A stretch of 64,000 bases of DNA from an uncultured Gemmatimonadaceae bacterium (lineage in GTDB: Bacteria > Gemmatimonadota > Gemmatimonadetes > Gemmatimonadales > Gemmatimonadaceae). This document shows positions 2 through 61,466 of the stretch, one piece after another. The translations under genes were made by a program, and so were the position numbers. Under the pieces are notes generated by a model that saw nothing but the letters and a program-made list of their open reading frames with translations, ran no database searches and was not told the DNA's origin. How positions within the stretch are numbered: the stretch's first letter is position 1; every line of letters starts with the position of its first letter. Location of the stretch: positions 96,001 through 160,000 of the forward strand of contig CAWAGQ010000004.1 of the NCBI GenBank assembly GCA_963781585.1. Direction: 5' to 3'.

Positions 2-607
2 ACCTACATCAACGAGATCGATGTCCGCAAGGTCGCGGTGGGACAGCCGGCCGTCGTCACCCTCGACGCCGATCCGTCCAAGCGGCTGGCCGGCACCGTG
101 ACGCAGGTGGCCAACGTCGGCGAGCAGCGGCCTAACGCCGACGCCAAGGTGTTCGAGGTGCACGTGACCATCTCTCATCCCGACACCACGCTGCGCCCCG
201 GCATGACGACCGGGAACGCGATCGAGACCTATTCAGTGCAGGATGCCCTTTCCGTGCCGCTCGAGGCAGTGGTCACCGAAGAAGGCGTGCCCTTCGTGTA
301 CAAGACCCAGGGCTCGGGCGTGGTGAAGCAGGAAGTGGAGACGGGGGTGATGAATGACGACGCGGTCATCATCACGAGCGGCCTTACCGGGAAAGATCGC
401 GTGTTGCTGTCACTTCCGTCGTCGACCTCCGGCATCGAGACGGTCCGGCTCCCCGGACCGGGGAAGACTCCGAAACCCACTGTTGGCGGAGACACCGGAG
501 CGGACCGCCGCGCGGTGCCGCCATCCGATTCAGGCACGAAGGGCGACGCGCCGAAGCCCACTCCCGCCGCCCCGAAGATGCCGCCACCCGCCGTCCGTCC
601 GGGCTGA
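2..607 (+). CDS. Efflux periplasmic adaptor (MacA/HlyD-type), 5'-truncated by window edge
   Basis: Open frame from position 2 (TYINEIDVRKVAVGQPAVVTLDA...LRPGMT...VPLEAV...VETG) matches the MFP beta-barrel and membrane-proximal domains. Pro-rich tail. Confidence 0.85.
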   Translation, partial: TYINEIDVRKVAVGQPAVVTLDADPSKRLAGTVTQVANVGEQRPNADAKVFEVHVTISHPDTTLRPGMTTGNAIETYSVQDALSVPLEAVVTEEGVPFVYKTQGSGVVKQEVETGVMNDDAVIITSGLTGKDRVLLSLPSSTSGIETVRLPGPGKTPKPTVGGDTGADRRAVPPSDSGTKGDAPKPTPAAPKMPPPAVRPG

Positions 608-612
608 TTCCC

Positions 613-2034
613 ATGCGCCTCGACGCGGTCCGCTTTGCGGAACTACGCGCCAAACTCATTGCGCACGTGATTTTCAGCATGCGCACGGCGTTCGAAGCCG
701 TGGCGCACAACAAGCTGCGAGCCGGCCTGACATCGCTGGGCATCCTGTTCGGGGTGGCATCGGTCATCGCGATGCTGGCCATCGGGAAGGGAGCGGAAGC
801 GGAGATCCTCGAACAGATGCGTCTTCTGGGAACGAACAACGTGGTCATCACGCCGCTGGTCGAGCAGAAGGAGGGCGCGGTGAAGGACCAGGATGAAAAG
901 GGCAAGCAGACCAAGCGCGTGTCGCCCGGGCTGACGTATCAGGATGCGGAGGCAATCCCGGCGGTGATCCCGGACGTCGAGACGGTGAGCTCGGAGATCG
1001 TGCTCAACACCACGATCACCCGAGAAGGCAGGAGGCGGTCCGGCAAGGCCGTGGGAGTGGACACGACCTATTTCCGCCTGATGAATCTCGGCCTCAAGAG
1101 CGGCGCGATCTTCTCCGGACTCCAGGTGTCGCGCGGGCTTCCGGTCGCCGTCATCGGCTCTGGGGTGCGCACCCGCTTCTTCACGACCGAGGATCCCATC
1201 GGGAAGCCCATCAAGGTCGGCGATTCGTGGCTCACGGTGGTTGGGGTGCTCGAGGATCGCCACGTGGGCGGCGAGGTGACGCAGCGGCTGGGAATCCGGG
1301 ATCCCAATATGGATGTCTACATGCCCGTGCACACGATGCTGCTGCGCTTCCGCAACCGCGCCCAGTTGACCCAGCGGGACATCGAGGCTGCTGCGAAGGG
1401 GGGCGACGACGGGATGATCATCATTGGTGGTCCTGATCAGACCAGCAACCAGAGCGATGAGCAGCGCGCCGAGCGCACCAATATCAACCAGCTCGACCGC
1501 ATCATTGTGCGGGTGAAGGACTCGCGCACGGTGCCCGCGGTGGCGGGGATCCTGCAGCGGATGCTCCAGCGGCGCCACAACGCGATCATCGATTTCGAGA
1601 TCACCGTTCCCGAGCTGCTGCTGCGCCAGGAGCAGCGGACCAAGACCATTTTCAACGTCGTCCTCGGCGCTATCGCCTCGATCTCGCTGATCGTCGGCGG
1701 CATCGGGATCATGAACATCATGCTGGCGTCGGTCCTCGAACGCATCCGTGAAATCGGTGTGCGTCGTGCGACCGGAGCGACGCAACGCGACATCCTTTTC
1801 CAGTTCCTGAGCGAGGCGGTGATCATCAGTGTTGCGGGCGGCATCGCGGGCATCATCGTCGGCGCCGCGCTGAGCAGCGGGATCGAGCACCTCGCCGGTA
1901 TCAAGACCCTGGTATCGTACGTCTCGATCTTCGTGGCATTTGGTGTGTCGCTGACGGTGGGTCTCGGATTCGGGATCGTGCCCGCGTGGCGCGCCGCGCA
2001 GCAGGATCCGGTCGTCTGCCTTCGCTACGAGTGA
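613..2034 (+). CDS. MacB/FtsX-type ABC transporter permease
   Basis: NKLRAGLTSLGILFGVASVIAM; GGIGIMNIMLASVLERIREIGVRRATGA; C-terminal DPVVCLRYE. Start may be ATG 679. Confidence 0.9.
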   Translation: MRLDAVRFAELRAKLIAHVIFSMRTAFEAVAHNKLRAGLTSLGILFGVASVIAMLAIGKGAEAEILEQMRLLGTNNVVITPLVEQKEGAVKDQDEKGKQTKRVSPGLTYQDAEAIPAVIPDVETVSSEIVLNTTITREGRRRSGKAVGVDTTYFRLMNLGLKSGAIFSGLQVSRGLPVAVIGSGVRTRFFTTEDPIGKPIKVGDSWLTVVGVLEDRHVGGEVTQRLGIRDPNMDVYMPVHTMLLRFRNRAQLTQRDIEAAAKGGDDGMIIIGGPDQTSNQSDEQRAERTNINQLDRIIVRVKDSRTVPAVAGILQRMLQRRHNAIIDFEITVPELLLRQEQRTKTIFNVVLGAIASISLIVGGIGIMNIMLASVLERIREIGVRRATGATQRDILFQFLSEAVIISVAGGIAGIIVGAALSSGIEHLAGIKTLVSYVSIFVAFGVSLTVGLGFGIVPAWRAAQQDPVVCLRYE

Positions 2035-2039
2035 TTCCC

Positions 2040-3500: not shown

Positions 3501-3576
3501 CCCTGCGTCCGGCGGTGTGTGGGAGGCCTGTCCAGCGGTTCCCGCTCAGGCCGTTCGCCCACCAGCCGGTCTCGGG

Positions 3577-4821
3577 TCACTCGTACCGGAGCGCTTCCAC
3601 GGGATCGAGCCGCGCGGCGCGGCGGGCGGGAATGATGCCGAATGCCACCCCGATGGCGATCGACACGGCCACCGCCACGATCGTCTGGGCCAGGGGCGTG
3701 GGCGCGCGTACCGCGATGAGGGTGCTGAGCAGGCGGCCCAGCGCCAGCCCGGTGGCCACGCCAATGATGCCGCCGATGCCGGTCAGCGTGGCCGCCTCGA
3801 TCAGGAACTGGAGCAGGATGTCACGACGCGAGGCGCCTAACGCCTTGCGCATCCCGATCTCTCGGGTGCGACTGGTGACCGACACCATCATGATCGCCAT
3901 CACGCCGATGCCGCCCACCAGCAGGGCCACCGACGACAGGGACACCATCACCAGGAAGAACGCGCCGGTCAGCTGGCCGAACAGGTCGAGGATCTGGTCC
4001 TGGGTGATCAGGTCGAAGGAGTTCTTGTCCGTGGGTCGCAGATGGCGCATTTCCCGCAGCGCCACCGTCACCGCCTCCTCGGCCGCCGCGACCGTGACGC
4101 CGGGGCGCGGCTTCACCGGAATGAAGAGCCCGTTGGTCTTGTCGACGTCGAATTGCGCATCGAGCATCCGGTACGGCAGGACCGCGCCATTATCCGCCCC
4201 CGGTGGAGTGAAGATGTTCGATTCCGGGGCGTACAGTCCGATGATCTGGGCTGGACGACCACCGACCCGCACCACCCGGCCGAGCGGATCGACGCGACCG
4301 AGAAGTCGCCGGGCATGGGACTCGTCCACCACCACAACGCTTGCACCGCTGCGCAGCTCGGAGCGCGTGAACCAGCGACCCTCCACCAGCTGGCCGCCCA
4401 TGATGTCGGGAAAGTGCTCGTCGGCCCCGGTCACGGTCGTCGGCTGCGACCGCGACCCGGCTACCTCGAGCCGCGCCAGCGTCTGTCCCCACAGGCCGGC
4501 GTACCCGATTTCCGGAAGGGCCGCGATGCGATCGGCCTCGGCCGCCGACAGGTCGGGCCGCACCCGGACCCACTTCGGCAGCGCATCGGGATTGAGCGGC
4601 GTTTGCGAGAACACCTTCATCACGTAGAAGGTGGTGGGACCGGCTACCGCGATGGTGTTCACGATCTGCTGCTGCAGTCCGTTCACGATCGTCGCCATTG
4701 CCATGACCGTGCTGATGCCGATCACGACCCCGAGGATCGTCAGGGACGACCGCAACTTGCTGACCCGCAGCGTCTCCAGCGCGATGCCCAGGTTCTCGTG
4801 GATCTGGTCGAGGAGCTTCAT
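3577..4821 (-). CDS. MacB-type ABC transporter permease
   Basis: KLRSSLTILGVVIG...GGIGVMAIMMVSVTSRTREIGMRKALGA...LDPVEALRYE; ATG 4821. Confidence 0.9.
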   Translation of the reverse strand: MKLLDQIHENLGIALETLRVSKLRSSLTILGVVIGISTVMAMATIVNGLQQQIVNTIAVAGPTTFYVMKVFSQTPLNPDALPKWVRVRPDLSAAEADRIAALPEIGYAGLWGQTLARLEVAGSRSQPTTVTGADEHFPDIMGGQLVEGRWFTRSELRSGASVVVVDESHARRLLGRVDPLGRVVRVGGRPAQIIGLYAPESNIFTPPGADNGAVLPYRMLDAQFDVDKTNGLFIPVKPRPGVTVAAAEEAVTVALREMRHLRPTDKNSFDLITQDQILDLFGQLTGAFFLVMVSLSSVALLVGGIGVMAIMMVSVTSRTREIGMRKALGASRRDILLQFLIEAATLTGIGGIIGVATGLALGRLLSTLIAVRAPTPLAQTIVAVAVSIAIGVAFGIIPARRAARLDPVEALRYE

Positions 4822-4837
4822 CGGGCGCCCACGGCGG

Positions 4838-6079
4838 TCAGTCGGGCCGCATCGCCGCAACCGGATCGAGGCGGGCGGCGCGTCGTGCCGGGTAGACCCC
4901 GAACAGGATGCCAACACCCGCACCTAACGTGAGGGCCAGTCCGATGGACCACCACGTGACCCGGGCAGGAAGGGGCGAGGCGACGGCGATCAGCCGCGCC
5001 AGCGCCCACCCCCAGAACACGCCCAGCAGGCCGCCGAGGAGTGCCAGCGCGATCGCTTCGGCGAGGAACTGCCGTTCGATGTCGCGGGCGCGCGCGCCCA
5101 CGGCCTTGCGAATCCCGATCTCGTGGGTGCGCTCGCTCACCGACATCAACATGATGTTCATGATCACGATTCCTCCAACCACGATCCCGATACCGACCAC
5201 GGCCGGCACCACCGCAAACAGCACCCGGGTCAGAGTCTTCCAGAAGGACACCAGCGCGTCCGCGGTCTCGATAGAAAAATCGTTCTCCTGGGTCGGCCGC
5301 AGTCCGTGCGCCACCCGCATCGCTTCTTCGGCACGCTGCATCGCCGGCGCCACGTCGCTCGCGGTCGCCACCTTCACGGAAATGGTGGTGGTCGCCCGTC
5401 GCCCGTACAGCATCTCGAAGCGCGTGATGGGCATCATGACGAACGCGTCGAACGACTGTCCGAGCACGCGGCCCTTGCGCTGATTCACTCCCACGATCGT
5501 GAAGCGCTCCCCCAGAATGCGCACGTCGTGCCCCACCGCGTCGACTGTTTCGAACAGGTCCTGGGCGATCTGGGCGCCCACGACGATCACCGGCCGCCGC
5601 TCCTGCACATCCAGGGCGGTGAGTGGTCGTCCCCGGTCGATGCGGTAGTCCTGCACGATCTGGTATGGCGCCGTCACCCCGAAGATGGGCACATCGCCCA
5701 GCGTTCGGTCTCCCCACACCACATCCGCCTGCGGTGTGGGCCAGCCGGACTGGAGGCTCACGGCGTCCGCGTCGGGAAGGGCATCGATGATGACGCCGGC
5801 GTCGCGCGCGCTGATCTTTGGACGGCGCTGCGCGCGCCGCCATTCGTCATCGCTCAGCCGCGCAAAGTTGATCGGTGTGCGCCGGATCTGAAACGCGTTC
5901 GCCCCGATCACCGCCCCCGCGATGTTCTCCCGGACGTACGCGTTGAGGCCCTGGATGATCGCCACCACGGCGACCAGGAACGTCACGGAAACGATGATGC
6001 CGAGCAGCGTGAAGAAGGAACGCAGCTTGTTGGCTCGGATCTGCCCGATGGCAGTGGCGATGACGTCCTGAAAGCGCAC
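4838..6079 (-). CDS. MacB-type ABC transporter permease
   Basis: NKLRSFFTLLGIIV...GGIVIMNIMLMSVSERTHEIGIRKAVGA...LDPVAAMR; GTG start 6079. Confidence 0.9.
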   Translation of the reverse strand: MRFQDVIATAIGQIRANKLRSFFTLLGIIVSVTFLVAVVAIIQGLNAYVRENIAGAVIGANAFQIRRTPINFARLSDDEWRRAQRRPKISARDAGVIIDALPDADAVSLQSGWPTPQADVVWGDRTLGDVPIFGVTAPYQIVQDYRIDRGRPLTALDVQERRPVIVVGAQIAQDLFETVDAVGHDVRILGERFTIVGVNQRKGRVLGQSFDAFVMMPITRFEMLYGRRATTTISVKVATASDVAPAMQRAEEAMRVAHGLRPTQENDFSIETADALVSFWKTLTRVLFAVVPAVVGIGIVVGGIVIMNIMLMSVSERTHEIGIRKAVGARARDIERQFLAEAIALALLGGLLGVFWGWALARLIAVASPLPARVTWWSIGLALTLGAGVGILFGVYPARRAARLDPVAAMRPD

Positions 6080-7526: not shown

Positions 7527-7530
7527 GTCG

Positions 7531-8936: not shown

Positions 8937-9758
8937 CTAGTGCGCAAATCCTGACTGCGCCGCAAGCGCACCTCGGCGATCATCACTGGCGATGACGCCG
9001 TCACGCAGGACCACGACGCGTCGCGCGTGAGCCGCGATGTCGGCCTCGTGCGTCACCATGATCACCGTCTGTCCCTGCTGCGCGAGTTCCTCGAAGACGT
9101 TCATGATTTCGCTCGAAGTCGCCGAGTCGAGATTCCCCGTGGGTTCGTCCGCCAGCAGGATGGATGGATTGTTCACCAGCGCCCGGGCAATTGCCACGCG
9201 CTGCCGCTGTCCGCCCGACAGCTCGTTAGGTCGGTGCATCATGCGGTCCTTGAGCTGTACCCGCTCGAGCGCCTCCATGGCCCGCTTCTTCCGGTCGGAG
9301 GACGACATGCCCGCGTAGACCAGCGGCAATTCCACGTTGTGCAAGGCCGTGGCCCGCGGCAACAGGTTGAACGTCTGGAAGACGAACCCGATCTCCTTGT
9401 TCCGCACCCGGGCCAGGGCGTTATCGCTCATGCTCGAAACGAGCTGGCCATTCAGCCAGTACTCGCCGTCGGTTGGCGTGTCGAGGCAACCGATGAGATT
9501 CATCAGCGTGGACTTGCCCGAGCCCGACGGGCCCATGATCGCCAGGTACTCATTGCGCCGTACTGCCAGATCCACGCCGCGCAGAGCGTGCACAACCTCG
9601 CCGCCCATGTCGTAGTCCCGACTCAGGCCGCGCGTCACGATGATCCAGTCCTTGCCGGGCGCGACGCCGTGACTGCCGGTCACGGCGATGCGTTCGGCGG
9701 TCGTGCTCATGCCCGGCTCGTCGGTCGCCACCCCGGGTTCGCTGAAAGTGTCAGTCAC
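8937..9758 (-). CDS. ABC transporter ATP-binding protein (MacB/LolD type)
   Basis: Walker A GPSGSGKS, signature LSGGQRQR, Walker [13 protein letters not shown]-loop VTH. Start is GTG 9758 or ATG 9710. Confidence 0.93.
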
Positions 9759-11035: not shown

Positions 11036-11050
11036 CGCATTCCGTCCCGG

Positions 11051-14309: not shown

Positions 14310-17300
14310 ATGCCGATCGGAGGGGCGGTGTCGCGGTGGTGGCTCGCGCTGGTCGCGGGAGCCGCTCTGGGCATGGCACTCTGGCTGCGAACGATCAGCA
14401 TACCATATCTCGCGCTCTCTTCTCTCGCTACCGCGCTGGCCATAGCGGGCGCCCGTCTGGGCCGCGCCAGAGGGTGGGCGATGGCGGGGACCTTGCTGCT
14501 GGCGCTGAGCGCGGCCGTCGCTGGCGTCTACGAGCGGACTATCTCGGAGATCGATCACGACTGGGAGCGGTATTCGCGGGGCCTGGCGGAGGCGGGGGTC
14601 GTCGCACTCCGAACCGCGGTGACCCACGACGTCGAGGCGCTCAGGGTCGTCTCGCGAAAGGCGCTGGACGCCCCCAGCGACCGGACTGCTGCCTTTTCCA
14701 GCCTGGAGAGATTGCTCGCCGGACAGCGATGGCAGAACGGGGGCGTGGTCCTCCTGGGGGACACGGCGCGGATTGCGTGGGCGGGCGAAACCAGAGTGGC
14801 AGCGGAGGGCGTCGCCGATTCGCTCGCGATCCTGGCGAATCCGTTCTACATCAGTGTGGTAGTGACCGCAGGTGGCGCGGCGCGCCGCACGGTAGCCACA
14901 TCGGTCCTGCATGCCGACCCGCCCGGCGACCGGCTCACGCGATCTGTTGACGGGCCGGTGGTGCGGTCCTCTGGTCTCCGCGGGTTCGAGTATCGCGAAG
15001 GGAGCCGGACGGACAGCGGCTGGACCGTGCTGACCGTGGGCGGACATGACTTGATTTCGGTGCGTCCCGTTCCCTTGTCGCAGGGAGAAGCTCGTGTCCG
15101 CGCGGTCGAGCGCGCCCGGCTGGCCGGCGCGGCAGGACTGGTTCTGGCCTTGCTGGTGCTGATGGCTGTGGCCTGGTGGCGGCCGGCGTCGCTCGCCCAG
15201 CGACTCGTGGCGCTGGGGGTTGGCCTCGCCGCGACGGCGATCGTTCCGTTCAACGCGTACTCCAACGTTTCACGGATCTTCGACCCGGCGGCGTACTTCA
15301 CGTCGCTGGGTGGTCCGCTGACGGGGAATGTGGGGGCACTGGCGGCAACCGGGGCGCTGGTGCTGCTGGGCTGCCTGGCACTCGTCCGCGCTGGCGTCCG
15401 GTCACGCTCCCGGTGGCTGGCCGCGCTGATCGTGGCGGCAGTAGCCTCGTTAGGTCCGTTTCTGCTACGGGATCTGGCGCGCGGCATCACGCTGCCGCCG
15501 CGCGGTGCGCCGGCAATTCTCTGGCTCGCGTGGCAGATCGCGCTTTTCCTGGCGGCGTCGGCGATGCTGTTGATCGGCGCCAGTGCGGGTCGGCTGGCGA
15601 TGGCGGGCCGGCGAGGCTTGTCCCCGGTGCTGGCGCCGGCGATCGCGATCGTGGCGGTCGGTGCCGCCCCGCTGCTCTGGCAGCCACCGGGACGCTGGCC
15701 CGGATGGTATACGGTGTTGTGGATCGTGGCGATGGCCGCACTGGCTCTGGCCCGACGATCACGGGGACTGGTGCTGAATGTGGGAATCGCCGCGGCCTGC
15801 GGCGCGGTCACGCTGGCGTGGGGTGCCGTCTCGCAGGATCGGGTCGAGCTCGCTCAGCTGGACGTCTCGCAGTTGGCGGCCCCGGACTCCTCGAACGTTG
15901 AGCTGCTCGATCGATTCGGCGATGCCCTCGAATCGAGCCCGCCGCCGCTCGATCGCGCGGATCTGCTGCTGCGATACGTCCGCTCGCCGCTGGAGGCGGC
16001 CGGACATCCGATCGGCATGGCGGTCTGGCTTCCGGGAGAGGAGCATCCCCATGCCGAACTGCTGATCTCGGATTTCGAGCATCACCCCGAGTCGGAGCGC
16101 GCCCTGGTTGCCAGGGCGCGCGCCGCGGGCGTGAGGACCTGGGACCTGGACCGGTCGACACAGGGTGTGCAGACGCTGATGGCGGTCCCCTATCCGGACA
16201 GCGTGGTGGTGACGGTGATCATCGCGCCGCGAACTCTGCTCATTCCCGAAGATCCGTTCACGTCGCTGATCGGGCTCGCCCCGGTGGCCGCCACTGAACC
16301 GCCGTACGACCTGACCCTGAGTACCCTGCCGTCGCCGATGCCGCTTTCCGAGCGCCCGTCCTGGATCCGCGTGGACAACGAACTGCACGGTGACTGGCGG
16401 GTGCCCCAGACGGCCGGCACGTCGCGGGTGCACGTGGAGGTCGACCTGCGCGGACTCGACGTTCTGCTGCCGCGGGGCGCCCTGATTGTGCTGCTCGACC
16501 TGGTGATTCTCAGCGGCCTCTGGACGCTGGTCGCTCTGGCCGACGGCGGGTTCGTGCGGTGGGCATGGTATCGCGCGCGTCGATGGACCCGGAGCTATCG
16601 CGGTCGCCTCACCGTCACGCTGTTCGCGTTCTTCGTGATTCCGGCAGCCGCTTTCGCGTCCTGGTCGTACCGGCGTCTGCAGCTGACCGATCTCGATGCG
16701 CGGATACTGCTGGTGCGCGAATCCCTCCGCAGCATCACCGCCGGCTGGGAGGGCGAAGCGCTGGACTCGCTCAGCGACCGGTTTGACACGCCCCTGTTCG
16801 AGTATCGCAACGGCGCGCTGAGCGGCCAAAGCGACGGACTGTATGCGCTGCTGGCGCCCGTGGGACGCTACCTGCCGCCGTCGGTCGCCATCAATCTCGG
16901 CGTGGAGAGCGAGCTGACGGCCACCGCGCGGCCTCCGGTGGCGAGGACTCCGACGCTGTTCGGGTATCGCCCGGTCGTGACCAGCGCCGGAGAGCGCGCC
17001 GTGCTGGCCGCCCCCGCGCGGACCAATGAGCTCGCCCTGGACCGCGAGCGCCGGGACATCGGCATGCTGGTCCTGTTCGCGACCTCGTTAGGCGGTCTGG
17101 CCGCCCTGTGGCTGAGCGGGCTGGCGGCACGGGAACTGGAGCGCCCGGTTGGCGCGTTGCGCCGGGCGGCGCTGCGCATCGCCCGCGGTGAGCGATACGT
17201 CCGGCCCGGCGCGCCGCCGGCGCTGGAGTTCGGACCGGTGTTTTCCGCGTTCGAGCGCATGGACGCGGAACTGACAGCCGGGCGGGAGGCGCTCGAAGAG

Positions 17301-18410: not shown

Positions 18411-20186
18411 ATGGCTGTCACCCCATTCGACGGCGTGCGTGCGGTTCGCCAGACGCCCGCCCCGCCCCGTCCGAACGCCGTCACCCACGAGCTTCCGCCG
18501 CATTTGACGGGGTGGCAGCTGCCTCCCGACTGGCGGTGGGGCAGCGAAGGCGTGCTCCACGAGTTCCGCCACTACCAGGAAGTCGTCGATGCGTTAGGCA
18601 GATCCTTGTCACTGGTGAGCGTGCCGGACCCGTCGCACACCGGGTGGCTGGCTGCCGAAGCACGGTATCTGGCGCACCGGAATCACCCATCGATTCCGAC
18701 CACCTACCACTACTGGCCGCCCCACCGCGAGAGCCGCCGCGGGCCGGGGTACCTGCGACGCTGGATTTCCGCGGAAACAATCGGCTCGCGGGTGCGGCGA
18801 CTGGGACCGGAGACCATTCCGGCCATGATTGCGGTACTCCGCGCCGTCGGTTCCACGCTGGCCTATCTGCACGACACTGGCATGCCGCACGGCGGCCTGT
18901 CGCCGGAATCCGTCTGGGCCGCGCCGACCGGGCGGGTCTGGATGCTGGGGTGGCAATGGGCGGTAGCGCCGTCCGACGCGCCGCCCGGCGTCGCGCCCGA
19001 TGCCCGCTGGACCCCATGGCCGCCTGAATGGCCGGCTTCCGGCTGGCTGCCAACGACTGCGTCCGACCAGTGGCAGCTGGCCGCCACCTGCTTCCTGGCG
19101 ATCACGGGCGAGCTGCCGCCCAGCAACGACGTGCCCCCAGTTGGACTGGTCAGGCCGGAGTGCCCGCGTGGACTTGCCGAGGTCCTCGATCGGGCGCTCC
19201 GCCCGGAGCCGTCCGATCGGCATCCGTCGATCCCGGCTCTCCTTCGTGCACTGGAGCGCGCCGGCGTGGCGCGCCGTCTCTACCTCGAACGCGAGTTGCC
19301 GGGCGAGGCCGACACCGACGAGAAGCGCCTCCGCTGGGCGGTGGGCGACGACTACGATGTGCTCGGCTTCCTTGGACGCGGCACGTTCGGAAGCGTCTGG
19401 CGGGTCCGCGATCTTTCGCTGGAGCGCGAGGTGGCGCTCAAGATGCTGCACCCGACCGTGGCTGAGGATCAGATTGCGGTGGCCCGATTCCATCGGGAGG
19501 CGCGATTGGCCGCGCAGCTCGCACATCCGGCGATCATCCCGATCTTCGATTGGGACAGTCGTGGTGAGGTTGCATGGTACACCATGGAGCTGGCTGAAGG
19601 GGGCTCGATCGCCGATCTGGTCGCGCGCGCGGGCGCCCGGCCGTTCGTCGACGTCCGCGCGCCGATCGATGCGATCCTCGACGCGCTCGCCGCCGCCCAT
19701 GCCAGCGGCATCATTCATCGCGACCTGAAGCCCGAGAACATCCTCATCGACCGCTATCGACGCTGGCGTATCACCGACTTCGGCATCGCCAAGCGCGAGG
19801 AAGATCCGAGTGGTGCCACCGGCACTCCCGCGTTTGCCGCGCCGGAGCAGCTCTTGGGTGAGGCCCAGGGTCCGGCCGTGGATTGCTTCGCGGTCGCCGG
19901 CATCGTGGCGTTCGTGTTGTCGGGAGCACCGCCGTTTTCCGGTCACGATGCGCCATCCATTCTCGCCCAGCAGCTTGCCGACGGCTTCGACCCGGCACCG
20001 TTTCCCGAGCCGCTGCGTCCCTGGCTGGCAAAGGGTCTTGCGGCCGACCTGGAAGAGCGTTTTGCCGACGCCACCGAGATGCGGGCCGCCTGGCGCGAGG
20101 TGGTGCGCGAGATGCGGCGTCGAGCGAAGCGGATGGACTCGTGGTGGGGACGGGTGCTGCGCGGCCCGAACGCGCAAGCGGATTGA
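18411..20186 (+). CDS. Hanks-type Ser/Thr kinase with an N-terminal degenerate kinase domain
   Basis: C-terminal domain has GRGTFG, VALK, HRDLKPEN, DFG and APE. N-terminal domain has LAYLH..HGGLSPESVW and SDQWQLA. Confidence 0.88.
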   Translation: MAVTPFDGVRAVRQTPAPPRPNAVTHELPPHLTGWQLPPDWRWGSEGVLHEFRHYQEVVDALGRSLSLVSVPDPSHTGWLAAEARYLAHRNHPSIPTTYHYWPPHRESRRGPGYLRRWISAETIGSRVRRLGPETIPAMIAVLRAVGSTLAYLHDTGMPHGGLSPESVWAAPTGRVWMLGWQWAVAPSDAPPGVAPDARWTPWPPEWPASGWLPTTASDQWQLAATCFLAITGELPPSNDVPPVGLVRPECPRGLAEVLDRALRPEPSDRHPSIPALLRALERAGVARRLYLERELPGEADTDEKRLRWAVGDDYDVLGFLGRGTFGSVWRVRDLSLEREVALKMLHPTVAEDQIAVARFHREARLAAQLAHPAIIPIFDWDSRGEVAWYTMELAEGGSIADLVARAGARPFVDVRAPIDAILDALAAAHASGIIHRDLKPENILIDRYRRWRITDFGIAKREEDPSGATGTPAFAAPEQLLGEAQGPAVDCFAVAGIVAFVLSGAPPFSGHDAPSILAQQLADGFDPAPFPEPLRPWLAKGLAADLEERFADATEMRAAWREVVREMRRRAKRMDSWWGRVLRGPNAQAD

Positions 20187-20196
20187 GCCCCCGGAC

Positions 20197-21576
20197 TCAG
20201 TCCGGGAACCCGGCGATTCTGATCGTCTTCACGTTGACGAATTCGCGCAGACCCCATGGGCCCAGTTCGCGTCCGTACCCCGACGCCTTGATTCCGCCGA
20301 AGGGGAATCGCGGGTCCGACGCGACGATCCCGTTGACGAACACCGTGCCGCTGTCGATCTCGCGCGCAAAGCGCTCCGCCTCGTCGGCGCGCGACGTCCA
20401 CACGCTGGCACCGAGACCGAACGCAGAGTCATTGGCGCGCTCGATTGCCCCCGTCACGTCGCGCACCCGAAACAGGGACGCCACCGGACCGAACAGCTCC
20501 TGTTCGGCGGCCGGAGACCCCGGGGGCACGTCGCTCAGTACCGTGGGCGCGTAGTAGTTGCCCGGCCCTCCGAGGCGGTGCCCACCGAGCAGCAGCCGCG
20601 CGCCGCGGGACAGGCTCTCCTGCACTTGCGCGTCCAGCGCATCGACCTGGTGCGGCGAGACCAGCGGACCGACGTCAGTCGAGTCGAGCAACGGATCACC
20701 CACCCGCATCGCGCGCATGCGGTCCACGAACCGTTGCTCGAATTCGTCGGCGATATCGTCGACCACGATGAAGCGCTTGGCGGCGATGCAGGACTCCCCG
20801 TTGTTGATGATCCGTGCGGTCACCGCGGCGTCCGCAGCAGCGGCCACGTCGGCGCTGGCGGTGACGACGAACGGATCGCTGCCTCCCAGTTCGAGCACCG
20901 TCTTCTTGAGGTGGCGTCCGGCCGCGGCCGCCACCGCTCGACCCGCACTTTCGCTGCCGGTGAGGGTGACGGCATGCACCCTGACGTCGGCGATGAGCCC
21001 ATCGACACGCTCGGACCCGACCAGGAGCGTCTGGAAGACGCCCTCGGGTGCACCGGCGCGCCGGAACAGATCCTCGAGTGCCAGCGCGCACTGTGGCACG
21101 TTCGACGCGTGCTTCAACAGCCCCACGTTCCCGGCGGCCAGCGCCGGCGCGGCGAAGCGGATCACCTGCCAGAACGGAAAGTTCCACGGCATCACAGCCA
21201 GCACCGTGCCTAACGGCTGGAACCGCACCTCGCCCCGTCCGGTGTCGTCCTTCACCACCAGTTCGGGGGCGAGAAACCGCTCGGCGTGCTCGGCATAGTA
21301 CCGGCACGCGAGCGCACACTTTTCCGCCTCGGCGATCGCCGACCGGTGCGTCTTCCCCATCTCCAGGGTCATGAGCCGGCCCAGCGCACTCTTTTCGCGC
21401 TCGAGCAGCGCCGCCGTGTCAGCGAGCAGACGGGCCCGGTCGTCAATCGGCACGTCTCGCCAATAGCCCGCCGCATCGGCGGCCCGCGCCAGTCGCTGCT
21501 CCACTTCGCCTTCGGAGTGCGGGTCGAACGTGGCGAGCGTCTCCCCGGTGGCCGGATTGATCGATGCGATGGACAT
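20197..21576 (-). CDS. NAD(P)-dependent succinate-semialdehyde dehydrogenase (Sad/GabD1-like)
   Basis: VMPWNFPFWQ, LKHASNVP, LELGGSDP, NNGESCIAAKR, ELFGPVA, PFGGIKASGYGRE. Confidence 0.9.
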   Translation of the reverse strand: MSIASINPATGETLATFDPHSEGEVEQRLARAADAAGYWRDVPIDDRARLLADTAALLEREKSALGRLMTLEMGKTHRSAIAEAEKCALACRYYAEHAERFLAPELVVKDDTGRGEVRFQPLGTVLAVMPWNFPFWQVIRFAAPALAAGNVGLLKHASNVPQCALALEDLFRRAGAPEGVFQTLLVGSERVDGLIADVRVHAVTLTGSESAGRAVAAAAGRHLKKTVLELGGSDPFVVTASADVAAAADAAVTARIINNGESCIAAKRFIVVDDIADEFEQRFVDRMRAMRVGDPLLDSTDVGPLVSPHQVDALDAQVQESLSRGARLLLGGHRLGGPGNYYAPTVLSDVPPGSPAAEQELFGPVASLFRVRDVTGAIERANDSAFGLGASVWTSRADEAERFAREIDSGTVFVNGIVASDPRFPFGGIKASGYGRELGPWGLREFVNVKTIRIAGFPD

Positions 21577-47172: not shown

Positions 47173-47177
47173 CGAGC

Positions 47178-50031: not shown

Positions 50032-50050
50032 TTCGTTAGGCACGCCGGGG

Positions 50051-52392: not shown

Positions 52393-54308
52393 TGGCCCTC
52401 TCGATCGGCATCGACGTGGGCGGCACGTTCACCGATCTGGTCAGCGTTGCCGACGACGGCGAAGTGGAGACCGGAAAGGTCCTGAGCACACCGGAGGACC
52501 AGAGTCAGGGCGTGGAGCGCGCGATGCGCGCCTTCGGCGCGGGGCCGGACGCGGTGGGCCGTATCGTGCACGGCACCACGGTGGTGACCAACATGCTGCT
52601 CGAACGCTCCGGGTCCCGGGTGGTGCTGTGCGCGACCGCAGCCGCCGCGGATCTGCTGGAGCTCCGCCGTCAGGAGCGCGCGTCGCTGTACGATCTGTCC
52701 GTGCATCATCCGGAGCCGCTGGTGCCGCGGGAGCGGGTGCTCGGCGTGACCGAGCGCCGCGAGCCGCAGGGCATTCGTGTTCGGCTCACGCAGGAGGAGG
52801 CCGACGACGTCGCCGAGCGAGCGGCGCGATTGGACCCCGAAGTGGTTGCGGTCTCCCTGCTCCACGCCTACCTCGACGATACCCACGAGCGTATGCTGGC
52901 CGGGGCAATCCGCCGGCGCGTCCCCGGCATCGATGTCGTGTGTTCGAGTGACGTGCTGCCGGAAATCCGGGAATACGAGCGGACGACCACGACCTGCTGC
53001 GAGGCCTATACGCGTCCTGGCGTCGGGCGGTATCTGGAGCGACTCGCCGACCGGTTGACGGGTCTCGGGTTGCCGGTCCCGGGGGTGATCGCGTCGAGCG
53101 GAGGAATGAGTACGGCGCGCGATGCCGCGCGTGCGGCGGCATCCCTGGCCCTGTCGGGTCCCGCGGGCGGAGTGGCGGGGGCGGCGCTGGTCGCCCGGAT
53201 GGCGGGGTTCGATCGCGCACTGAGCATCGACATTGGTGGCACGAGTGCCGATGCGGGGCTGGTACTCGATGGTGAGCCGCTGGTGGAGGCCGGAGGCCAG
53301 GTGGCGGGCGTGCCGATCGCCCTGCCGCGGGTGCTCGTGGAGACGGTGTCGGCTGGCGGAGGGAGCATCGGGTGGCTGGACGACGGCGGAGCGTTGCGGG
53401 TCGGTCCGCGCAGCGCCGGGGCAGTGCCGGGACCGGTGGCGTTTGCCCGCGGCGGCTCGCATCCCACCGTCACCGACGCTCACGTCGCGTTAGGCAATAT
53501 CCGGGCCGAACACATGAGCGACGAGGTGCGTCTGGACGCCGCGGCGGCGCGCACGGCGGTGAGCGCGCTGGCCCGGCGTCTGGGGGCCGACCCGGCACGG
53601 ACGGCCGAAGCGATGATCGCGGCGGCCGATGCCGCGGTGGCCCGCGCGCTCCGGCGGGTGAGCGTGGAGCGCGGCATCGACCCGCGGACCTGTGTGCTGG
53701 TGGCGTTCGGGGGTGGCGGTCCCCTGCACGCCTGTGGTCTGGCCGACCGCCTCGGCATGCGGCGTATTCTGGTGCCGCCCTGTGCCGGCGTCCTCAGCGC
53801 CCTCGGCCTGGCCGTGGCACCGGAGCGGCGCGTGGTTCTGGCCAGTGTCATGCGCTGCGTGGACGAGCTGGAGCCCGGCGCGCTCGGCCGCCTGTCCGCC
53901 GAGATGGCCGGCCGGGCCGGGACGGCGCCGAACGTGACGTGGATCGCGCGGGCGAGGTATCGCGGCCAGGGACACGAATTGGAGGTGCCGTTCGAGCCGG
54001 CTGAGTCGCCCGGGCGACTGGGGGAACGATTCGCCGCGATGCACCAGACGCGGTACGGATTCACGCTGCACCTTCCGGTGGAGGTCGTCAGCGCCCGCTG
54101 TGCCCGGTCGGGATCCTCCGTGAGCGCGGCGCTCTCCCGACGCGGACCATCGCGGTGGGCCGACGATCGCGCCACCGACGACGGCGGAGAACTCGACGCC
54201 GTGGTGGTCGGCCCGTGCGTCGTTGCGCTCCGCGACGCGACCATGCTCGTGGCTCCCGAGTGGACAGCGCGATCGCTGCCCATCGGCGGGTGGATGATGG
54301 AGCGATGA
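52392..54308 (+). CDS. Hydantoinase/5-oxoprolinase subunit A (ATP-binding)
   Basis: GIDVGGTFTD, HGTTVVTN, EIREYER, SGPAGG, DIGGTSAD, AFGGGGPLH. Confidence 0.92.
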   Translation: MALSIGIDVGGTFTDLVSVADDGEVETGKVLSTPEDQSQGVERAMRAFGAGPDAVGRIVHGTTVVTNMLLERSGSRVVLCATAAAADLLELRRQERASLYDLSVHHPEPLVPRERVLGVTERREPQGIRVRLTQEEADDVAERAARLDPEVVAVSLLHAYLDDTHERMLAGAIRRRVPGIDVVCSSDVLPEIREYERTTTTCCEAYTRPGVGRYLERLADRLTGLGLPVPGVIASSGGMSTARDAARAAASLALSGPAGGVAGAALVARMAGFDRALSIDIGGTSADAGLVLDGEPLVEAGGQVAGVPIALPRVLVETVSAGGGSIGWLDDGGALRVGPRSAGAVPGPVAFARGGSHPTVTDAHVALGNIRAEHMSDEVRLDAAAARTAVSALARRLGADPARTAEAMIAAADAAVARALRRVSVERGIDPRTCVLVAFGGGGPLHACGLADRLGMRRILVPPCAGVLSALGLAVAPERRVVLASVMRCVDELEPGALGRLSAEMAGRAGTAPNVTWIARARYRGQGHELEVPFEPAESPGRLGERFAAMHQTRYGFTLHLPVEVVSARCARSGSSVSAALSRRGPSRWADDRATDDGGELDAVVVGPCVVALRDATMLVAPEWTARSLPIGGWMMER

Positions 54309-54350: not shown

Positions 54351-55919
54351 ATGAGCACTGAGATCCAGCACCCGCTCCCTTTCGACCCTCTGTCGCTCAC
54401 CGTGATGTCGCATGCGGTGGCGATGGTCGCCGAGGAAATGGGAACGGTGCTGGAACGCGGTGCCCTGTCGCCGAACATCCGCGAGCGCCGCGACGCGTCG
54501 GCGGCGCTCTTCGATGCCGGCGGAAGAATGGTCGCCCAGGCCGCCCACATCCCCGTGCACCTGGGGGCGATGCCGGAGTCCGTGCGCGCCGTGCGCGAGC
54601 GCCGGCCGCGCGTGGGCGACGTGTTCCTGCTCAACGACCCATATCGCGGGGGATCGCATCTGCCCGATCTCACGATGGTCGAAGCCATCGGGCTCGGTGA
54701 GCGCATTGTTGGCTTCTCGGCCGTACGTGCCCATCACGCGGACGTGGGGGGCATGAGCCCCGGCAGCATGCCGCGCGGCGCGACCGAACTGGTGCAGGAG
54801 GGAATTGTCGTCCCGCCGGTGCGCATCGCCCGCGGCGACGCGTTCGACGAGGAGATGCTGGAATTCATCCTTGCGAACGTCCGTACACCCGAGGAGCGAC
54901 GCGGCGATCTCAAGGCGCAGCGGGCCGCGTGCGCGGCGGGACGGGATGGCTGGCTCGCGCTGCTCGCCCGTGAAGGCGAGGACCACGTGGTCGCGGCCTG
55001 CGACGCCCTGCTGGACTACACCGAGCGGCGGGCGCGGGCACGAATCAATCAGCTGCAGGGCGCCCGCGGCTCGGCGCGCGACGCGCTGGAAGGGGATGGT
55101 GTGACAGACGACCCGGTGGTTGTAGCCGTGCGTCTCGAGGCGATGTCGGACGATCGGCTGCGCCTCGACTTCACCGGAACCTCCGCGATGGTGCGGGGCA
55201 ACGTGAACTGCCCGTTCGCCGTGACTCGTGCGGCGAGCGTCTTCGTCCTGCGTACCCTGCTCGACGACGACGTACCGACCAACGACGGGATTGCGCGGGC
55301 CCTCGACCTGGTGGTTCCGGAAGGCAGCGTGATCAACGCGCGGTGGCCGGCGGCGGTGGCCGCCGGGAACGTCGAAACTTCGCAGCGGATTACGGACACC
55401 CTGTTCGCCGCCCTGGCGGACGCGGGGGTCCCCGTCCCGGCGCAGGGGCAGGGAACGATGAACAACATCACGTTCGGGGGCGACGGCTGGACGTTCTACG
55501 AAACGTTAGGCGGAGGGCAGGGCGGCGGTCCCCGTGGCGACGGACCGAGCGCCGTGCACGTGGGCATGAGCAACACGCGCAACACACCCATCGAATCGCT
55601 CGAGCAGACGTATCCGCTGCGCATCGACGAATACGCCGTGCGCCGCGATTCGGGTGGCGCCGGACGGCATCGCGGGGGTGACGGCGTGATCCGCCGGTAC
55701 CGGGTCCTGGAACGGTGCACGGTGACCCTGCTCACCGAGCGCCGGCGGCTGCAACCCGCGGGCGTGGCTGGTGGCTCCAGCGGCGCCGCCGGTGCAAATC
55801 TGCTGAACGGGGCACCTCTCCCCGCCAAATGCCGGGTGGAGCTCGCTCCCGGCGACGTCGTCACCATCATGACGCCTGGTGGCGGAGGATGGGGCGCCCC
55901 CGGCGGTCGAGACCAGTAG
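54351..55919 (+). CDS. Hydantoinase B/5-oxoprolinase subunit
   Basis: SPNIRERRD, HIPVHLG, NDPYRGGSHLPD, HHADVGG, AAGNVETSQ, TPGGGGWG. Confidence 0.92.
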   Translation: MSTEIQHPLPFDPLSLTVMSHAVAMVAEEMGTVLERGALSPNIRERRDASAALFDAGGRMVAQAAHIPVHLGAMPESVRAVRERRPRVGDVFLLNDPYRGGSHLPDLTMVEAIGLGERIVGFSAVRAHHADVGGMSPGSMPRGATELVQEGIVVPPVRIARGDAFDEEMLEFILANVRTPEERRGDLKAQRAACAAGRDGWLALLAREGEDHVVAACDALLDYTERRARARINQLQGARGSARDALEGDGVTDDPVVVAVRLEAMSDDRLRLDFTGTSAMVRGNVNCPFAVTRAASVFVLRTLLDDDVPTNDGIARALDLVVPEGSVINARWPAAVAAGNVETSQRITDTLFAALADAGVPVPAQGQGTMNNITFGGDGWTFYETLGGGQGGGPRGDGPSAVHVGMSNTRNTPIESLEQTYPLRIDEYAVRRDSGGAGRHRGGDGVIRRYRVLERCTVTLLTERRRLQPAGVAGGSSGAAGANLLNGAPLPAKCRVELAPGDVVTIMTPGGGGWGAPGGRDQ

Positions 55920-57001: not shown

Positions 57002-57155
57002 GGCGTTCGTGTCCTAACGAGCAGCAGCTCCCGGGTTCAGCGTACGCCGGGTACAATGCGTCCGGGACGATACGCCGGCAACCATGGTCGGGATGGGGAG
57101 CGCCACCGCCCGCGCTGCCGGAAAGCAACGGTCGTGCGGCCGGGCTCCCCCGCGG

Positions 57156-59204: not shown

Positions 59205-59239
59205 TCTCAGCTGTTCGCTGACATGACAACGAGGTAATT

Positions 59240-59446
59240 GTGAAGCCTGGAATCCATCCGGAATACGCCACCGCTACCGTCAAATGCGCTTGCGGCCATA
59301 CCTGGCAGACACGGTCCACGGTCGGGGAGCTGCATCTCGATATCTGCTCGAATTGCCACCCCTTCTTCACCGGGAAGCAGAAGCTGGTCGACACCGCAGG
59401 TCGCGTTGAGCGCTTCCGCCAGAAGTACGCCGGGAAGAAGTCCTGA
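59240..59446 (+). CDS. rpmE: 50S ribosomal protein L31 (Zn-binding type)
   Basis: [31 protein letters not shown]. Confidence 0.97.
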
Positions 59447-60564
59447 GCCTCCGCGATCGACTCGCTGAAGAAGTCGCGCGGGCGGCCGAAGTCGAACGTC
59501 AACTCAGCGACCCCGGCACGCATCGTGACGCCAGGCTCCTTGCGTCGCTGGGCCGGGAGCACCAGCGGCTCTCGGGCCTCGTGCTCCTGTCATCGCGACT
59601 CCAGAAGCTCGACACCGAGCTGGCGCAGGCGCGCGAGCTCGCGCACGCGGACGACCCCGAGCTGGCGGCCGAGGCCCGCGCGGAAGTCGATCGCCTCGCC
59701 GAAGAACTGGAGCGGGCCGAGGAGTCGCTGAAGCCGCTGCTCGTCCCGCGCGACCCGCTCGATGATCGCGCGTGCATCATGGAGATCCGCGCCGGTACCG
59801 GCGGTGACGAGGCGGCCCTGTTTGCGGCGGACCTCTTCCGCATGTACACCCGCTACGTCGAACGGCGCGGCTGGCGCACCGACGTGCTGTCCTACTCCGA
59901 AGGATCGTTAGGCGGCATCAAGGAAGTGGTGTTCAAGGTGGACGGCCCCGGGGCGTTCGGCGACATGCGATGGGAATCGGGCGTGCATCGAGTGCAGCGC
60001 GTTCCCCAGACGGAGGCGCAGGGGCGCATCCATACGTCGGCGGCGACCGTGGCCGTCCTTCCCGAGGCCGAAGAGGTGGACATCGAGCTCGAGGACAAGG
60101 ATCTTCGGATCGACGTGTATCGCGCCTCCGGTCCGGGCGGCCAGGGCGTCAACACCACCGATTCGGCGGTACGGATCACGCACCTGCCGACCGGCGAAGT
60201 AGTCACCCAGCAGGATCAGCGCTCGCAGCTGCAGAACAAGGCCCGCGCCCTCGCGGTCCTGCGGTCGCGGTTGCTCGACCGCCGCATCGCCGAGCAGGAG
60301 GCGGAGCGATCGCGCCTCCGCCGCGCCCAGGTGTCCACCGGTGATCGTTCGGCCAAGATCCGGACCTACAACTTTCCGCAGAATCGTGTGACCGATCATC
60401 GGATCAGGTTCGAGTCGCACAACCTCCCGGGTATTCTGGATGGCGGCATCGGCGACCTGATCGAAGCCCTGAAGCTAGCGGACCTGGAGGAACGTCTGAA
60501 CGGGGACGCGGTGGCTGGCGACGACGCGGTGCTCAAACGGCCACGGGGAGGAAAGGGGACGTGA
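59443..60564 (+). CDS. prfA: Peptide chain release factor 1 (probable CTG start)
   Basis: [14 protein letters not shown] (RF1 PxT), [16 protein letters not shown]1-like N-terminal helices extend upstream to CTG 59443. Confidence 0.93.
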
Positions 60565-61466
60565 GGCCGCGTTCGGTCGCACCGGCGACCGACTTGCGGC
60601 CCCTGGGCGCCTTCACGCTGCGCGCGCTTGTGGACGAGGTCCACGAGAAGTTCGCGACCGCCGGCTTCGCGGTCGCACGGGCCGAGGCCCGGGACCTGGT
60701 TGCCGCAGCGTGCGATCGGCCGCGCTTCTGGCCGACCCTCCACGCGGGCCTGGGGGTGGACGACGATGTCGTTAGGCGCGTCACACTCGCGGCCGAACGC
60801 AGATGCCGCGGCGCGCCTTTCGCCTACGCAGTGGGCCGCGCGGCATTCCGGCGTCTGACGCTGACGGTGGACGAGCGCGTGCTCATTCCACGGCAGGAGA
60901 CGGAGGTGCTGGTTGACCTCGTCCTGGCGGCGCGCCGCGGCATTCCGGGAGGCGTCGCCGTCGACGTGGGTACGGGATCCGGCGCCATCGCCCTGGCGCT
61001 CGCGTCCGAGCACTCGTTCGAGCGCGTCATCGCGACCGACGTCTCGTCCGACGCGTTGACGGTGGCCCGCGGCAACGCCCGCGCGCTGCAGGCAGCCTGT
61101 CGGGCGCCGGTCGAGTTTCGCGCCGGGAGCACTCTGGCTCCATTGGGAGCGGACTGCGTGGATGTTATCGTCTCCAATCCCCCCTACATCGCGTTCGGCG
61201 AGGTGACCTCACTCCCACCATCCGTCCGGGACTGGGAGCCGATGCCCGCCCTCATCTGCGGCGATTCCGGCCTCGCGGTCTCGCGCCGGATAATCGAAGC
61301 CGCCCCGGCCCGACTCTGCACGGGCGGACTGCTGGCGCTGGAGGCCGACGTGCGACGGGTGGCAGCGGTGGCCCAGCTGCTCTCGCAGTCGGGGGCGTTC
61401 TCGGACGTCTCAGTGCATTGCGACCTCACGGGTCGTGAGCGCTTCGTTCTCGCGCGGCGCGGCTAG
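60561..61466 (+). CDS. prmC: Release factor glutamine methyltransferase
   Basis: VLIPRQETE, DVGTGSGAIA, VSNPPYI; follows prfA. Confidence 0.95.
   Translation: MRPRSVAPATDLRPLGAFTLRALVDEVHEKFATAGFAVARAEARDLVAAACDRPRFWPTLHAGLGVDDDVVRRVTLAAERRCRGAPFAYAVGRAAFRRLTLTVDERVLIPRQETEVLVDLVLAARRGIPGGVAVDVGTGSGAIALALASEHSFERVIATDVSSDALTVARGNARALQAACRAPVEFRAGSTLAPLGADCVDVIVSNPPYIAFGEVTSLPPSVRDWEPMPALICGDSGLAVSRRIIEAAPARLCTGGLLALEADVRRVAAVAQLLSQSGAFSDVSVHCDLTGRERFVLARRG

Follow-up and report, generated by a model that had tools for sequence, protein, structure and literature searches.

A dispersed eight-base DNA word written against codon preference in some Gemmatimonadaceae, a candidate self-DNA tag

The window, a stretch of 64,000 nucleotides from an uncultured Gemmatimonadaceae bacterium (assembly GCA_963781585.1, contig CAWAGQ010000004.1, positions 96,001 to 160,000), carries one short non-palindromic DNA word far more often than chance allows. 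The word is CGTTAGGC/GCCTAACG, an octamer and the predominant form of CGTTAGGY, with CGTTAGG/CCTAACG as its 7-mer form. It had been noticed in an earlier sequence-only reading as a dispersed signal set into genes through rare codons. With high confidence, we regard it as a non-random and lineage-restricted feature that resides at the level of the DNA. A more tentative proposal is that the word is the 8-bp tag of a hitherto undescribed self-DNA recognition system in some Gemmatimonadaceae, which possibly recodes these genomes against their codon bias.

Abundance of the word in the window

Motif search revealed 18 copies of CGTTAGG, twelve on the plus and six on the minus strand, and 14 of them were CGTTAGGC. 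Positions 1 to 7 were invariant in all 18 copies, the eighth base was C in 14, T in three and A in one, thus a pyrimidine in 17 of 18, and the flanks outside the eight bases showed no conservation across the 18 copies. The coordinates and strands given in the sequence-only reading were all recovered, and its figures of 14 octamers and 17 CGTTAGGY matched our counts. Three null models yielded far lower numbers: 100 dinucleotide shuffles gave 2.44 7-mers (largest value 7) and 0.89 8-mers (largest 4), an order-3 Markov model 1.35 and 0.42, and synonymous-codon shuffles 2.96 (maximum 8) and 1.37 (maximum 5). The last null comprised 1000 shuffles within genes on our own gene calls, with the two intergenic copies kept fixed and counted. 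No dinucleotide or codon shuffle reached the observed 18 or 14, so that observation and expectation lie far apart even under the codon-aware null (14 against 1.37 octamers). The zero-order expectations of the earlier reading, about seven 7-mers and two 8-mers, had been too generous to chance, and the excess therefore exceeds the one stated there.

In an unbiased scan of all 8-mers of the window, CGTTAGGC was the top outlier, followed by its own sub-words. All 18 occurrences of TTAGG and 18 of the 26 TTAG/CTAA tetramers lie inside the word, as had been said of most of these tetramers. The enrichment amounts to 10-33-fold against the nulls and about 100-fold against relatives. On average a copy occurs roughly every 3.5-4.6 kb of the window, or 0.22-0.28 times per kb; two related loci, L001 and L002, reach about 0.5 per kb. 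A chance origin of the excess is excluded.

Codon choice and reading context

Fifty-one genes were called by a codon-usage score, most of them supported by Pfam. Sixteen of the 18 copies are genic; 13 of these lie on the sense strand, and 12 of the 13 share one frame. The word is read as NCG-TTA-GGY in twelve sense cases, as CCT-AAC-G in three antisense cases and as GTT-AGG in one, and two copies are intergenic (50034, 57013). These contexts are the ones described before, now found on independent gene calls, and the gene assignments made then (dinB, prfA for RF1, prmC-like, comM, kinases, ABC/MacB) agree with Pfam.

The main frame depends on a codon that the phylum hardly uses. No leucine codon is rarer than TTA in the control genes, which come from 24 other Gemmatimonadota loci (TTA 31 of 95,645 codons, CTA 126), and none of these 31 TTA codons stands in a CG_GG context. 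The window holds 15 TTA codons, 12 of which, 80 % of the codon's uses, fall within the word, so TTA is not distributed independently of the NCG_GGY context; a thirteenth reads GCG-TTA-GAC. Among the sites of the window at which the amino acids permit the word, 12 of 55 [ASTP]-L-G sites are written as such, and likewise three of seven P-N-[VADEG] sites, though CCT makes up only 53 of 980 proline codons, and one in 128-145 x-V-R sites. The enrichment of the antisense P-N form shows that DNA, rather than peptide or mRNA, carries the signal. Selection at the protein level is excluded. The codon-aware null, the confinement of TTA, the antisense CCT form and the enrichment beyond the window all bear out the earlier inference of selection, or else drive, on DNA rather than protein.

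Distribution among relatives

With the RF1 protein of the window as query, 80 loci were obtained from species-representative genomes, the source genome not being among the 80; altogether the evidence comprises 79 kb from carriers and comparison loci that add up to about 1.2 Mb. The best RF1 matches came from Gemmatimonadaceae metagenome-assembled genomes (MAGs) with 71-74 % amino-acid identity. L002 has six 8-mers in 11.4 kb against 0.18 expected, a number reached by none of 200 shuffles, and L001 has two in 3.8 kb, so the enrichment is not confined to the window. The window, L001 and L002 together contain 22 copies in 79,217 bases, the 24 other Gemmatimonadota loci (L003-L024 without L015 and L020, plus L026, L027, L031 and L060) a single copy in 390,638 bases; L015 and L020, outside this control set, have none. 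Density in L001 and L002 and near-absence from the other Gemmatimonadota loci support the earlier view of a lineage-specific signal. These other loci revealed no lineage-specific word of similar strength, with the low power of 11-21 kb per locus. Among 706 PLSDB records matching a MacB-type protein of the window (best identity 37 %), no Gemmatimonadota plasmid was present.

Trees were computed from RF1 (33 rows) and from a six-gene concatenation (13 rows). The window falls into a fully supported clade of six with L001, L002, L003, L005 and L007. Three of the six sampled members carry the word, and no branch has the carriers on one side. The 51 kb of L003, L005 and L007 lack the word altogether; at the density of the window some 11 copies would be expected there. 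A replacement word was not found in them at the low power of 11-21 kb per locus. As the carriers do not form one clade, the word has disappeared on two or three occasions or else been acquired repeatedly.

Loci of other phyla have zero to two copies each, the level of chance, with the exception of L049 from a Desulfacinum MAG. Its seven copies, all on one strand, belong to one intergenic tandem heptamer repeat (9685-9760), and L049 was rejected as a distant carrier and considered a coincidence. The repeat unit is GGCGTTA, in some cases GGCGTAA, and the repeat is absent from the sister species in L052, though the flanks are about 95 % identical. The strongest unrelated outlier across the loci was AGCCCCTA in L032, a Nitrospirota MAG locus, with five dispersed copies against 0.13 expected; this may be an effect of multiple testing.

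Origin of the copies at orthologous sites

Alignments to relatives indicate how the copies arose. The RF1 site reads TCG-TTA-GGC in the window and ACG-TTA-GGC in L001, whereas 13 of 30 other loci have leucine at this site as CTC (8), CTG (3), TTG (1) or CTT (1) and never as TTA. All eight relatives aligned at the site in hydantoinase A encode leucine there, by CTC, CTG, CTA or CTT; of the nine aligned in hydantoinase B, four show CTC or CTG and the other five ATC. A valine-arginine pair is written GTT-AGG in L002 against GTG-CGC in L005. The rarest codons took the place of common ones (TTA for CTC/CTG, CCT for CCG, GTT-AGG for GTG-CGC), in both orientations and in unrelated genes. Copies that changed residues lie in variable protein segments, for example V-R in the PrmC-like protein of the window and P-N-D in RF1 of L002.

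Since relatives use common codons for the same residues, the word was built by at least two substitutions per site, mostly synonymous ones and against codon preference. Of about seven comparable sites only one, in prfA, is common to carriers (window and L001). The others differ, thus the word is kept genome-wide and not site by site. Because unrelated genes were recoded, a directional force, either selection or drive, must act on the word. The sequence-only reading had proposed a look at synonymous sites of orthologues; there, relatives keep the leucine with CTC or CTG and most word sites are not conserved.

Near matches

Of the 24 one-mismatch forms, only CGTTAGGT and CGTTCGGC exceed the codon-aware null in the window. 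CGTTAGGT occurs three times against 0.13 expected. CGTTCGGC occurs 19 times against 8.4-9.6 expected from dinucleotide or codon shuffles, none of 300 shuffles reaching 19; this is about twice the density in control Gemmatimonadota, and the frames include A/S/T-F-G, A-E-R and P-N. Two neighbour words stand at expected counts, CGTTGGGC with 4 against 3.3 and CGCTAGGC with 1 against 1.3. The window has no excess of CGTCAGGC (7 against 6.5-7.8), whereas the 11 kb of L002 contain eight copies of it against 1.16 expected, reached by none of 200 shuffles; four of seven genic copies there use the rare codons TCA or CCT. L002 may thus possess a dialect, CGTYAGGC, with a relaxed position 4.

Orientation and spacing

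In the orientation of prfA, the copies of the window, L001 and L002 are divided 17 to 9 between the strands. Within the window, plus-strand genes contain nine sense copies and one antisense copy, minus-strand genes four and two. In L002 three antisense copies were called against one sense copy, two copies being without gene assignment; the antisense CCT-AAC-G form has three further cases in L001 and L002. The GC skew at four-fold sites on the coding strand is 0.083 for plus-strand and 0.081 for minus-strand genes, and no DnaA box was present in the window with up to one mismatch. With equal coding-strand skew and no DnaA boxes, the direction of replication is not readable from the window. An origin inside the window, with minus copies to its left and plus copies to its right, was considered and rejected: DnaA boxes are lacking, the GC skew tracks gene orientation, and the apparent switch lies within a MacB-type operon.

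The closest copies are 864 bp apart (P about 0.01, for one of three spacing statistics tried). The largest copy-free gap, 12.8 kb at 37210-50033, is unremarkable (P=0.29). This stretch has a slightly lower GC content (0.65-0.66) and contains genes for NAD synthase-like, LigT, sigma-54 activator, aldehyde dehydrogenase, signal peptidase, sigma-70 and MiaB-like proteins.

Possible function as an uptake-sequence-like tag

The interpretation that we rank first, though as a tentative one, is that of an uptake-sequence-like tag of self-DNA spread by molecular drive. The reader of the word would be a sequence-specific DNA-handling protein whose substrate is the DNA of the cell itself, read as duplex or as single strand. 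Fragments with the word would be preferentially bound and taken up in natural transformation, and recombination would then spread new copies through the population by molecular drive. In lineages that lose the reader the word would decay, aided by selection against rare codons; reader loss and decay of the word would account for the patchy distribution. The word is nearly absent from related DNA, hence it was not adopted as an already common word, and the genome must have adapted to its reader. Such adaptation is the pattern of uptake sequences, arising from uptake bias and recombination according to passages of one account (PMC1939737). The site turnover, the use of both orientations, the possible dialect and the loss in some lineages fit the uptake model. 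The lack of clustering below 864 bp likewise fits an uptake sequence, and the model gains slight support from the only two DNA-metabolism genes of the window, those of a DinB-type polymerase and ComM, each bearing a copy.

Several observations weigh against an uptake-sequence-like tag. The DNA uptake sequence (DUS) and uptake signal sequence (USS) reach densities of about 0.4-0.9 per kb, above the 0.22-0.28 of the window, and are family-wide, whereas three of the six clade members sampled lack the word. All word counts rest on 79 kb, the carriers as one clade are rejected by the approximately unbiased test (p=0.004), and the mismatch halo is narrow within the window. In the portions of a recent preprint that describe known uptake sequences, about half of these lie in terminators, often as inverted pairs (10.1101/2025.10.24.684340). 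Only two of the 18 copies in the window are intergenic, neither of them with a terminator-like hairpin, and inverted copy pairs are absent from the window. A Pfam scan of the 51 proteins of the window revealed no gene for a pilin or DNA receptor; uptake sequences have a cognate receptor, for instance a minor pilin of the ComP type. Finally, none of the 97-113 x-L-T sites of the window is written as the word, while one such copy exists in L002. At these sites the antisense word, C-CTA-ACG, is a single transition away from CTG, and CTA is commoner than TTA in the phylum. A selection on DNA that is blind to orientation does not predict an unused x-L-T frame.

Alternative explanations

Second in rank, and doubtful, is a role comparable to Chi, in which a helicase-nuclease of the RecBCD/AddAB type would read the word on one strand and switch from degradation to RecA loading. 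Its density would then be kept by selection for double-strand-break repair and for discrimination between self and foreign DNA, a proposition we hold to be just as doubtful. A non-palindromic 8-mer of sharp specificity, with seven invariant positions in all 18 copies, would suit such an enzyme, as would the mostly genic location (16 of 18) without clustering. Escherichia coli has about 1,000 Chi sites per 4.6 Mb, with a leading-strand bias of about 75 %; the 0.22 per kb of the window is a similar density, and the strand use of 12 to 6, or 17 to 9 with L001 and L002, is compatible with that bias. However, the strand bias is non-significant and tracks gene orientation instead of one absolute strand, and no replication-linked skew was measurable in the window. 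Known Chi words are G-rich, consist of common codons and are modestly over-represented, whereas the word of the window makes use of the rarest codon and exceeds its density in relatives about 100-fold. Patchy carriers are not expected for a core repair enzyme, and L003, L005 and L007 have no replacement word in the low-power search described above. The Pfam scan found neither recBCD nor addAB in the 51 proteins of the window.

An organisational word similar to the highly iterated palindrome HIP1 of cyanobacteria is an unlikely explanation. Here an abundant DNA-binding or DNA-modifying protein, for instance an orphan methyltransferase with its sites under selection, would give the word a structural or epigenetic role across the genome. 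Patchiness is typical of methyltransferase and restriction-modification genes, and the copies are spread without short-range clustering. On the other side, we know of no process that strongly enriches a modification site, 18 copies are too few to assess periodicity, and no DNA methyltransferase was detected by Pfam in the 51 proteins of the window, the only methyltransferase fold being the PrmC-like protein methyltransferase. Over-representation of HIP1 is given as 15-300-fold in sections of the literature (PMC5861425), a range into which the 10-33-fold (nulls) and about 100-fold (relatives) excess falls. The same sections describe HIP1 as a palindrome with conserved sites (PMC5861425), but the word is asymmetric and most of its sites are not conserved.

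A by-product of mutation or repair, such as deamination at methylated CGTCAGGC, G-to-T damage at GCCGAACG or Vsr-type repair, is largely refuted and has very little left to recommend it. Two one-step neighbours show a mild excess (CGTCAGGC in L002, CGTTCGGC in the window), and by the genetic code neither a G-to-A change at position 5 nor a C-to-T change at position 3 would alter the amino acid in the main frames. Yet the orthologous codons are leucine CTC/CTG and not serine TCA, phenylalanine TTC or TTG. Two substitutions were thus needed, including GC-to-AT changes opposite to Vsr-type repair, and a V-R pair was even rewritten from GTG-CGC to GTT-AGG. The substrates CGTTGGGC, CGCTAGGC and CGTCAGGC are undepleted, and the product count of 14 is above what the substrate pools could supply. 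A G-to-A hotspot turning CGTTGGGC into CGTTAGGC, or deamination of CGTCAGGC, is ruled out by the orthologous codons and the undepleted neighbours. Methylation had been among the candidates of the sequence-only reading; an origin in one step through methylation and deamination is contradicted by orthologous CTC/CTG codons.

A signal in RNA or translation is of similarly low probability. UUA would be used only within CG-UUA-GG of the mRNA, as a site of slow translation or a target of an RNA-binding protein. The 13 sense copies among 16 genic ones, 12 of them in one frame, and the unused antisense x-L-T contexts agree with this. The antisense CCT-AAC-G form is nevertheless enriched (three of seven P-N-[VADEG] sites, three more in L001 and L002), antisense copies exceed sense copies in L002, and a GTT-AGG frame and intergenic copies exist. 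No Rfam match and no conserved flank was associated with the word; Rfam families and tRNA genes are absent from the window.

Least probable of all, almost negligibly so, are a guide sequence for FtsK/SpoIIIE like the FtsK-orienting polar sequences (KOPS) and an integron attC core, although the word is a non-palindromic 8-mer and GTTAGGC fits the GTTRRRY core, as pointed out in the earlier reading. KOPS and the SpoIIIE recognition sequences (SRS) are polar, with above 85-90 % on the leading strand, but at most 67 % of the copies share a strand, and neither DnaA boxes nor a skew switch place an origin. An integron attC site pairs an inverse core site with a core site at a distance of 50-150 bp, next to an integron integrase. 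With the nearest copies 864 bp apart there are no attC-like inverted cores, and with no integrase or recombinase domain in the 51 called proteins of the window the integron connection has to be dropped. Strong KOPS-like polarity and attC sites are excluded, while a polarity of the Chi type may be compatible with the data of the window.

Individual copies and their surroundings

The copies of the window are listed in Table 1 together with sites of two near matches. The CGTTAGGA copy at 57012..57019, the sole copy without a pyrimidine at position 8, may be a chance copy, and its AGGA may be the ribosome-binding site of the beta-lactamase-family gene. The copy at 50034..50041 ends, with its own TAG (50037-50039), an alternative SpoIID-like frame of 48756-50039. 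This SpoIID-domain open reading frame (ORF) has a coding-like GC content at third codon positions in its first half only, whereas the 3' part is coding-like in frame 49687-50031, which suggests either two genes or a frameshift, the latter genuine or due to a sequencing error. Five genes of MacB/FtsX-type permeases lie within 613-12508, the first at 613-2034 and the others as a tandem array of four at 3577-8772; this cluster, which also holds an ABC ATPase, an HlyD-type adaptor and two outer-membrane efflux (OEP) genes, is a large set of duplicated transporters of the efflux or lipoprotein-release type.

Table 1 Copies of the word in the window and sites of two near matches
Sequence	Locus	Position	Strand	Context
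CGTTAGGC	window	130..137	-	antisense to HlyD-like ORF (2-607, +); coding strand CGG-CCT-AAC-GCC
CGTTAGGC	window	3835..3842	-	sense, MacB/FtsX permease gene (3577-4821, -); GCG-TTA-GGC
CGTTAGGT	window	4922..4929	-	sense, MacB/FtsX permease gene (4838-6079, -); ACG-TTA-GGT
CGTTAGGT	window	9224..9231	+	antisense to ABC ATPase gene (8937-9758, -); coding strand CGA-CCT-AAC-GAG
CGTTAGGT	window	15448..15455	+	sense, large histidine kinase gene (14310-18293, +); TCG-TTA-GGT
CGTTAGGC	window	17086..17093	+	sense, large histidine kinase gene (14310-18293, +); TCG-TTA-GGC
CGTTAGGC	window	18592..18599	+	sense, 5' part of Ser/Thr kinase ORF (18552-20186, +; start codon uncertain); GCG-TTA-GGC
CGTTAGGC	window	21208..21215	-	sense, aldehyde dehydrogenase gene (20197-21576, -); CCG-TTA-GGC
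CGTTAGGC	window	23160..23167	+	sense, cytochrome b561-type gene (22691-23386, +); GCG-TTA-GGC
CGTTAGGC	window	26370..26377	-	sense, DinB-type (IMS family) polymerase gene (25578-26822, -); TCG-TTA-GGC
CGTTAGGC	window	31061..31068	+	antisense to Zn-dependent dehydrogenase gene (30225-31214, -); coding strand CCG-CCT-AAC-GAC
CGTTAGGC	window	37202..37209	+	sense, ComM-type (Mg chelatase-like) gene (36949-38523, +); GCG-TTA-GGC
CGTTAGGC	window	50034..50041	+	intergenic; 2 nt past TGA of ORF 49687-50031, 9 nt ahead of ATG at 50051
CGTTAGGC	window	53488..53495	+	sense, hydantoinase/oxoprolinase A gene (52392-54308, +); GCG-TTA-GGC
CGTTAGGC	window	55504..55511	+	sense, hydantoinase B gene (54351-55919, +); ACG-TTA-GGC
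CGTTAGGA	window	57012..57019	-	intergenic; 12 nt upstream of ATG of beta-lactamase-family gene (55979-57001, -)
CGTTAGGC	window	59906..59913	+	sense, prfA (RF1, 59581-60564, +); TCG-TTA-GGC
CGTTAGGC	window	60770..60777	+	sense, PrmC-like methyltransferase gene (60594-61466, +); GTC-GTT-AGG-CGC, rare-codon Val-Arg
CGTTCGGC	window	2221		example site
CGTTCGGC	window	25506		example site
CGTTCGGC	window	33153		example site
CGTTCGGC	window	59954		example site
CGTTCGGC	window	61192		example site
CGTCAGGC	L002	1528		
CGTCAGGC	L002	2520		
CGTCAGGC	L002	2937		
CGTCAGGC	L002	3118		
CGTCAGGC	L002	6601		
CGTCAGGC	L002	6978		
CGTCAGGC	L002	9402		
CGTCAGGC	L002	10680		

Novelty and significance

Hyper-abundant genomic words are rare, and DUS/USS, Chi and KOPS show how cells recognise and handle their own DNA. 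A search of open-access papers and bioRxiv gave none that links Gemmatimonadota to an uptake sequence or, among the string matches listed, describes the word; by title these matches were primers or unrelated work. The literature found there on natural transformation and competence of gemmatimonads did not, by title or start of the abstract, deal with any DNA word. New are the sequence of the word, its phylum, its construction on the rarest codon and its patchy distribution; the kind is already known from DUS/USS, Chi and HIP1. To our knowledge no genetic system has been described for Gemmatimonadota. The presence of the word in only some related genera means that comparative genomics could identify its reader directly. 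If the word is indeed a self-DNA tag, it would represent a third independent origin of specificity of the uptake-sequence type, or a new reader of like force, in a largely uncultured soil phylum, with a determinant gained and lost among genera and perhaps mobile. Should the word govern DNA uptake or recombination, it would be relevant to gene flow in soil communities and offer a handle for the genetic manipulation of Gemmatimonadota. Within these genomes it is a sharp marker for binning and for the detection of foreign DNA.

Comparison with known systems

The word resembles the DUS and USS of Neisseriaceae and Pasteurellaceae in being short, non-palindromic, lineage-restricted and hugely over-represented. 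It shares with them the placement in the least costly coding frames in either orientation, the turnover of sites and possible dialects, with CGTYAGGC of L002 as the candidate. Here as there, the genome adapts to its reader, as far as the relevant parts of two sources describe it for uptake sequences (PMC1939737; 10.1101/2025.10.24.684340). The differences are a length of 8 bp here against 9-12 bp there and another phylum; moreover the word has no link to terminators or inverted pairs, is sparser, has a narrow mismatch halo and is patchy among the family members sampled. Chi words are asymmetric, have 5-8 nt and occur about once every few kb. Chi, GCTGGTGG in E. coli with variants in other species, is like the word asymmetric, of similar length, mainly genic and present about once per 4.6 kb, but the word is not G-rich, uses the rarest codon, is enriched far more strongly and has patchy carriers. 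HIP1, GCGATCGC in cyanobacteria, is also a hyper-abundant octamer, its excess being held to be selected in the passages concerned (PMC5861425). HIP1 differs in being palindromic, in its far higher density and in the conservation of its sites from genome to genome, whereas the word is asymmetric, sparser and mostly not conserved in position. In high-GC Actinobacteria the scarcity of TTA codons is connected with bldA, through whose rare tRNA genes are regulated. In both cases TTA is near-absent from a high-GC genome and the few TTA codons are conspicuous; here, however, they are accounted for by a DNA word with antisense and intergenic copies as well, and not by regulation through a rare tRNA.

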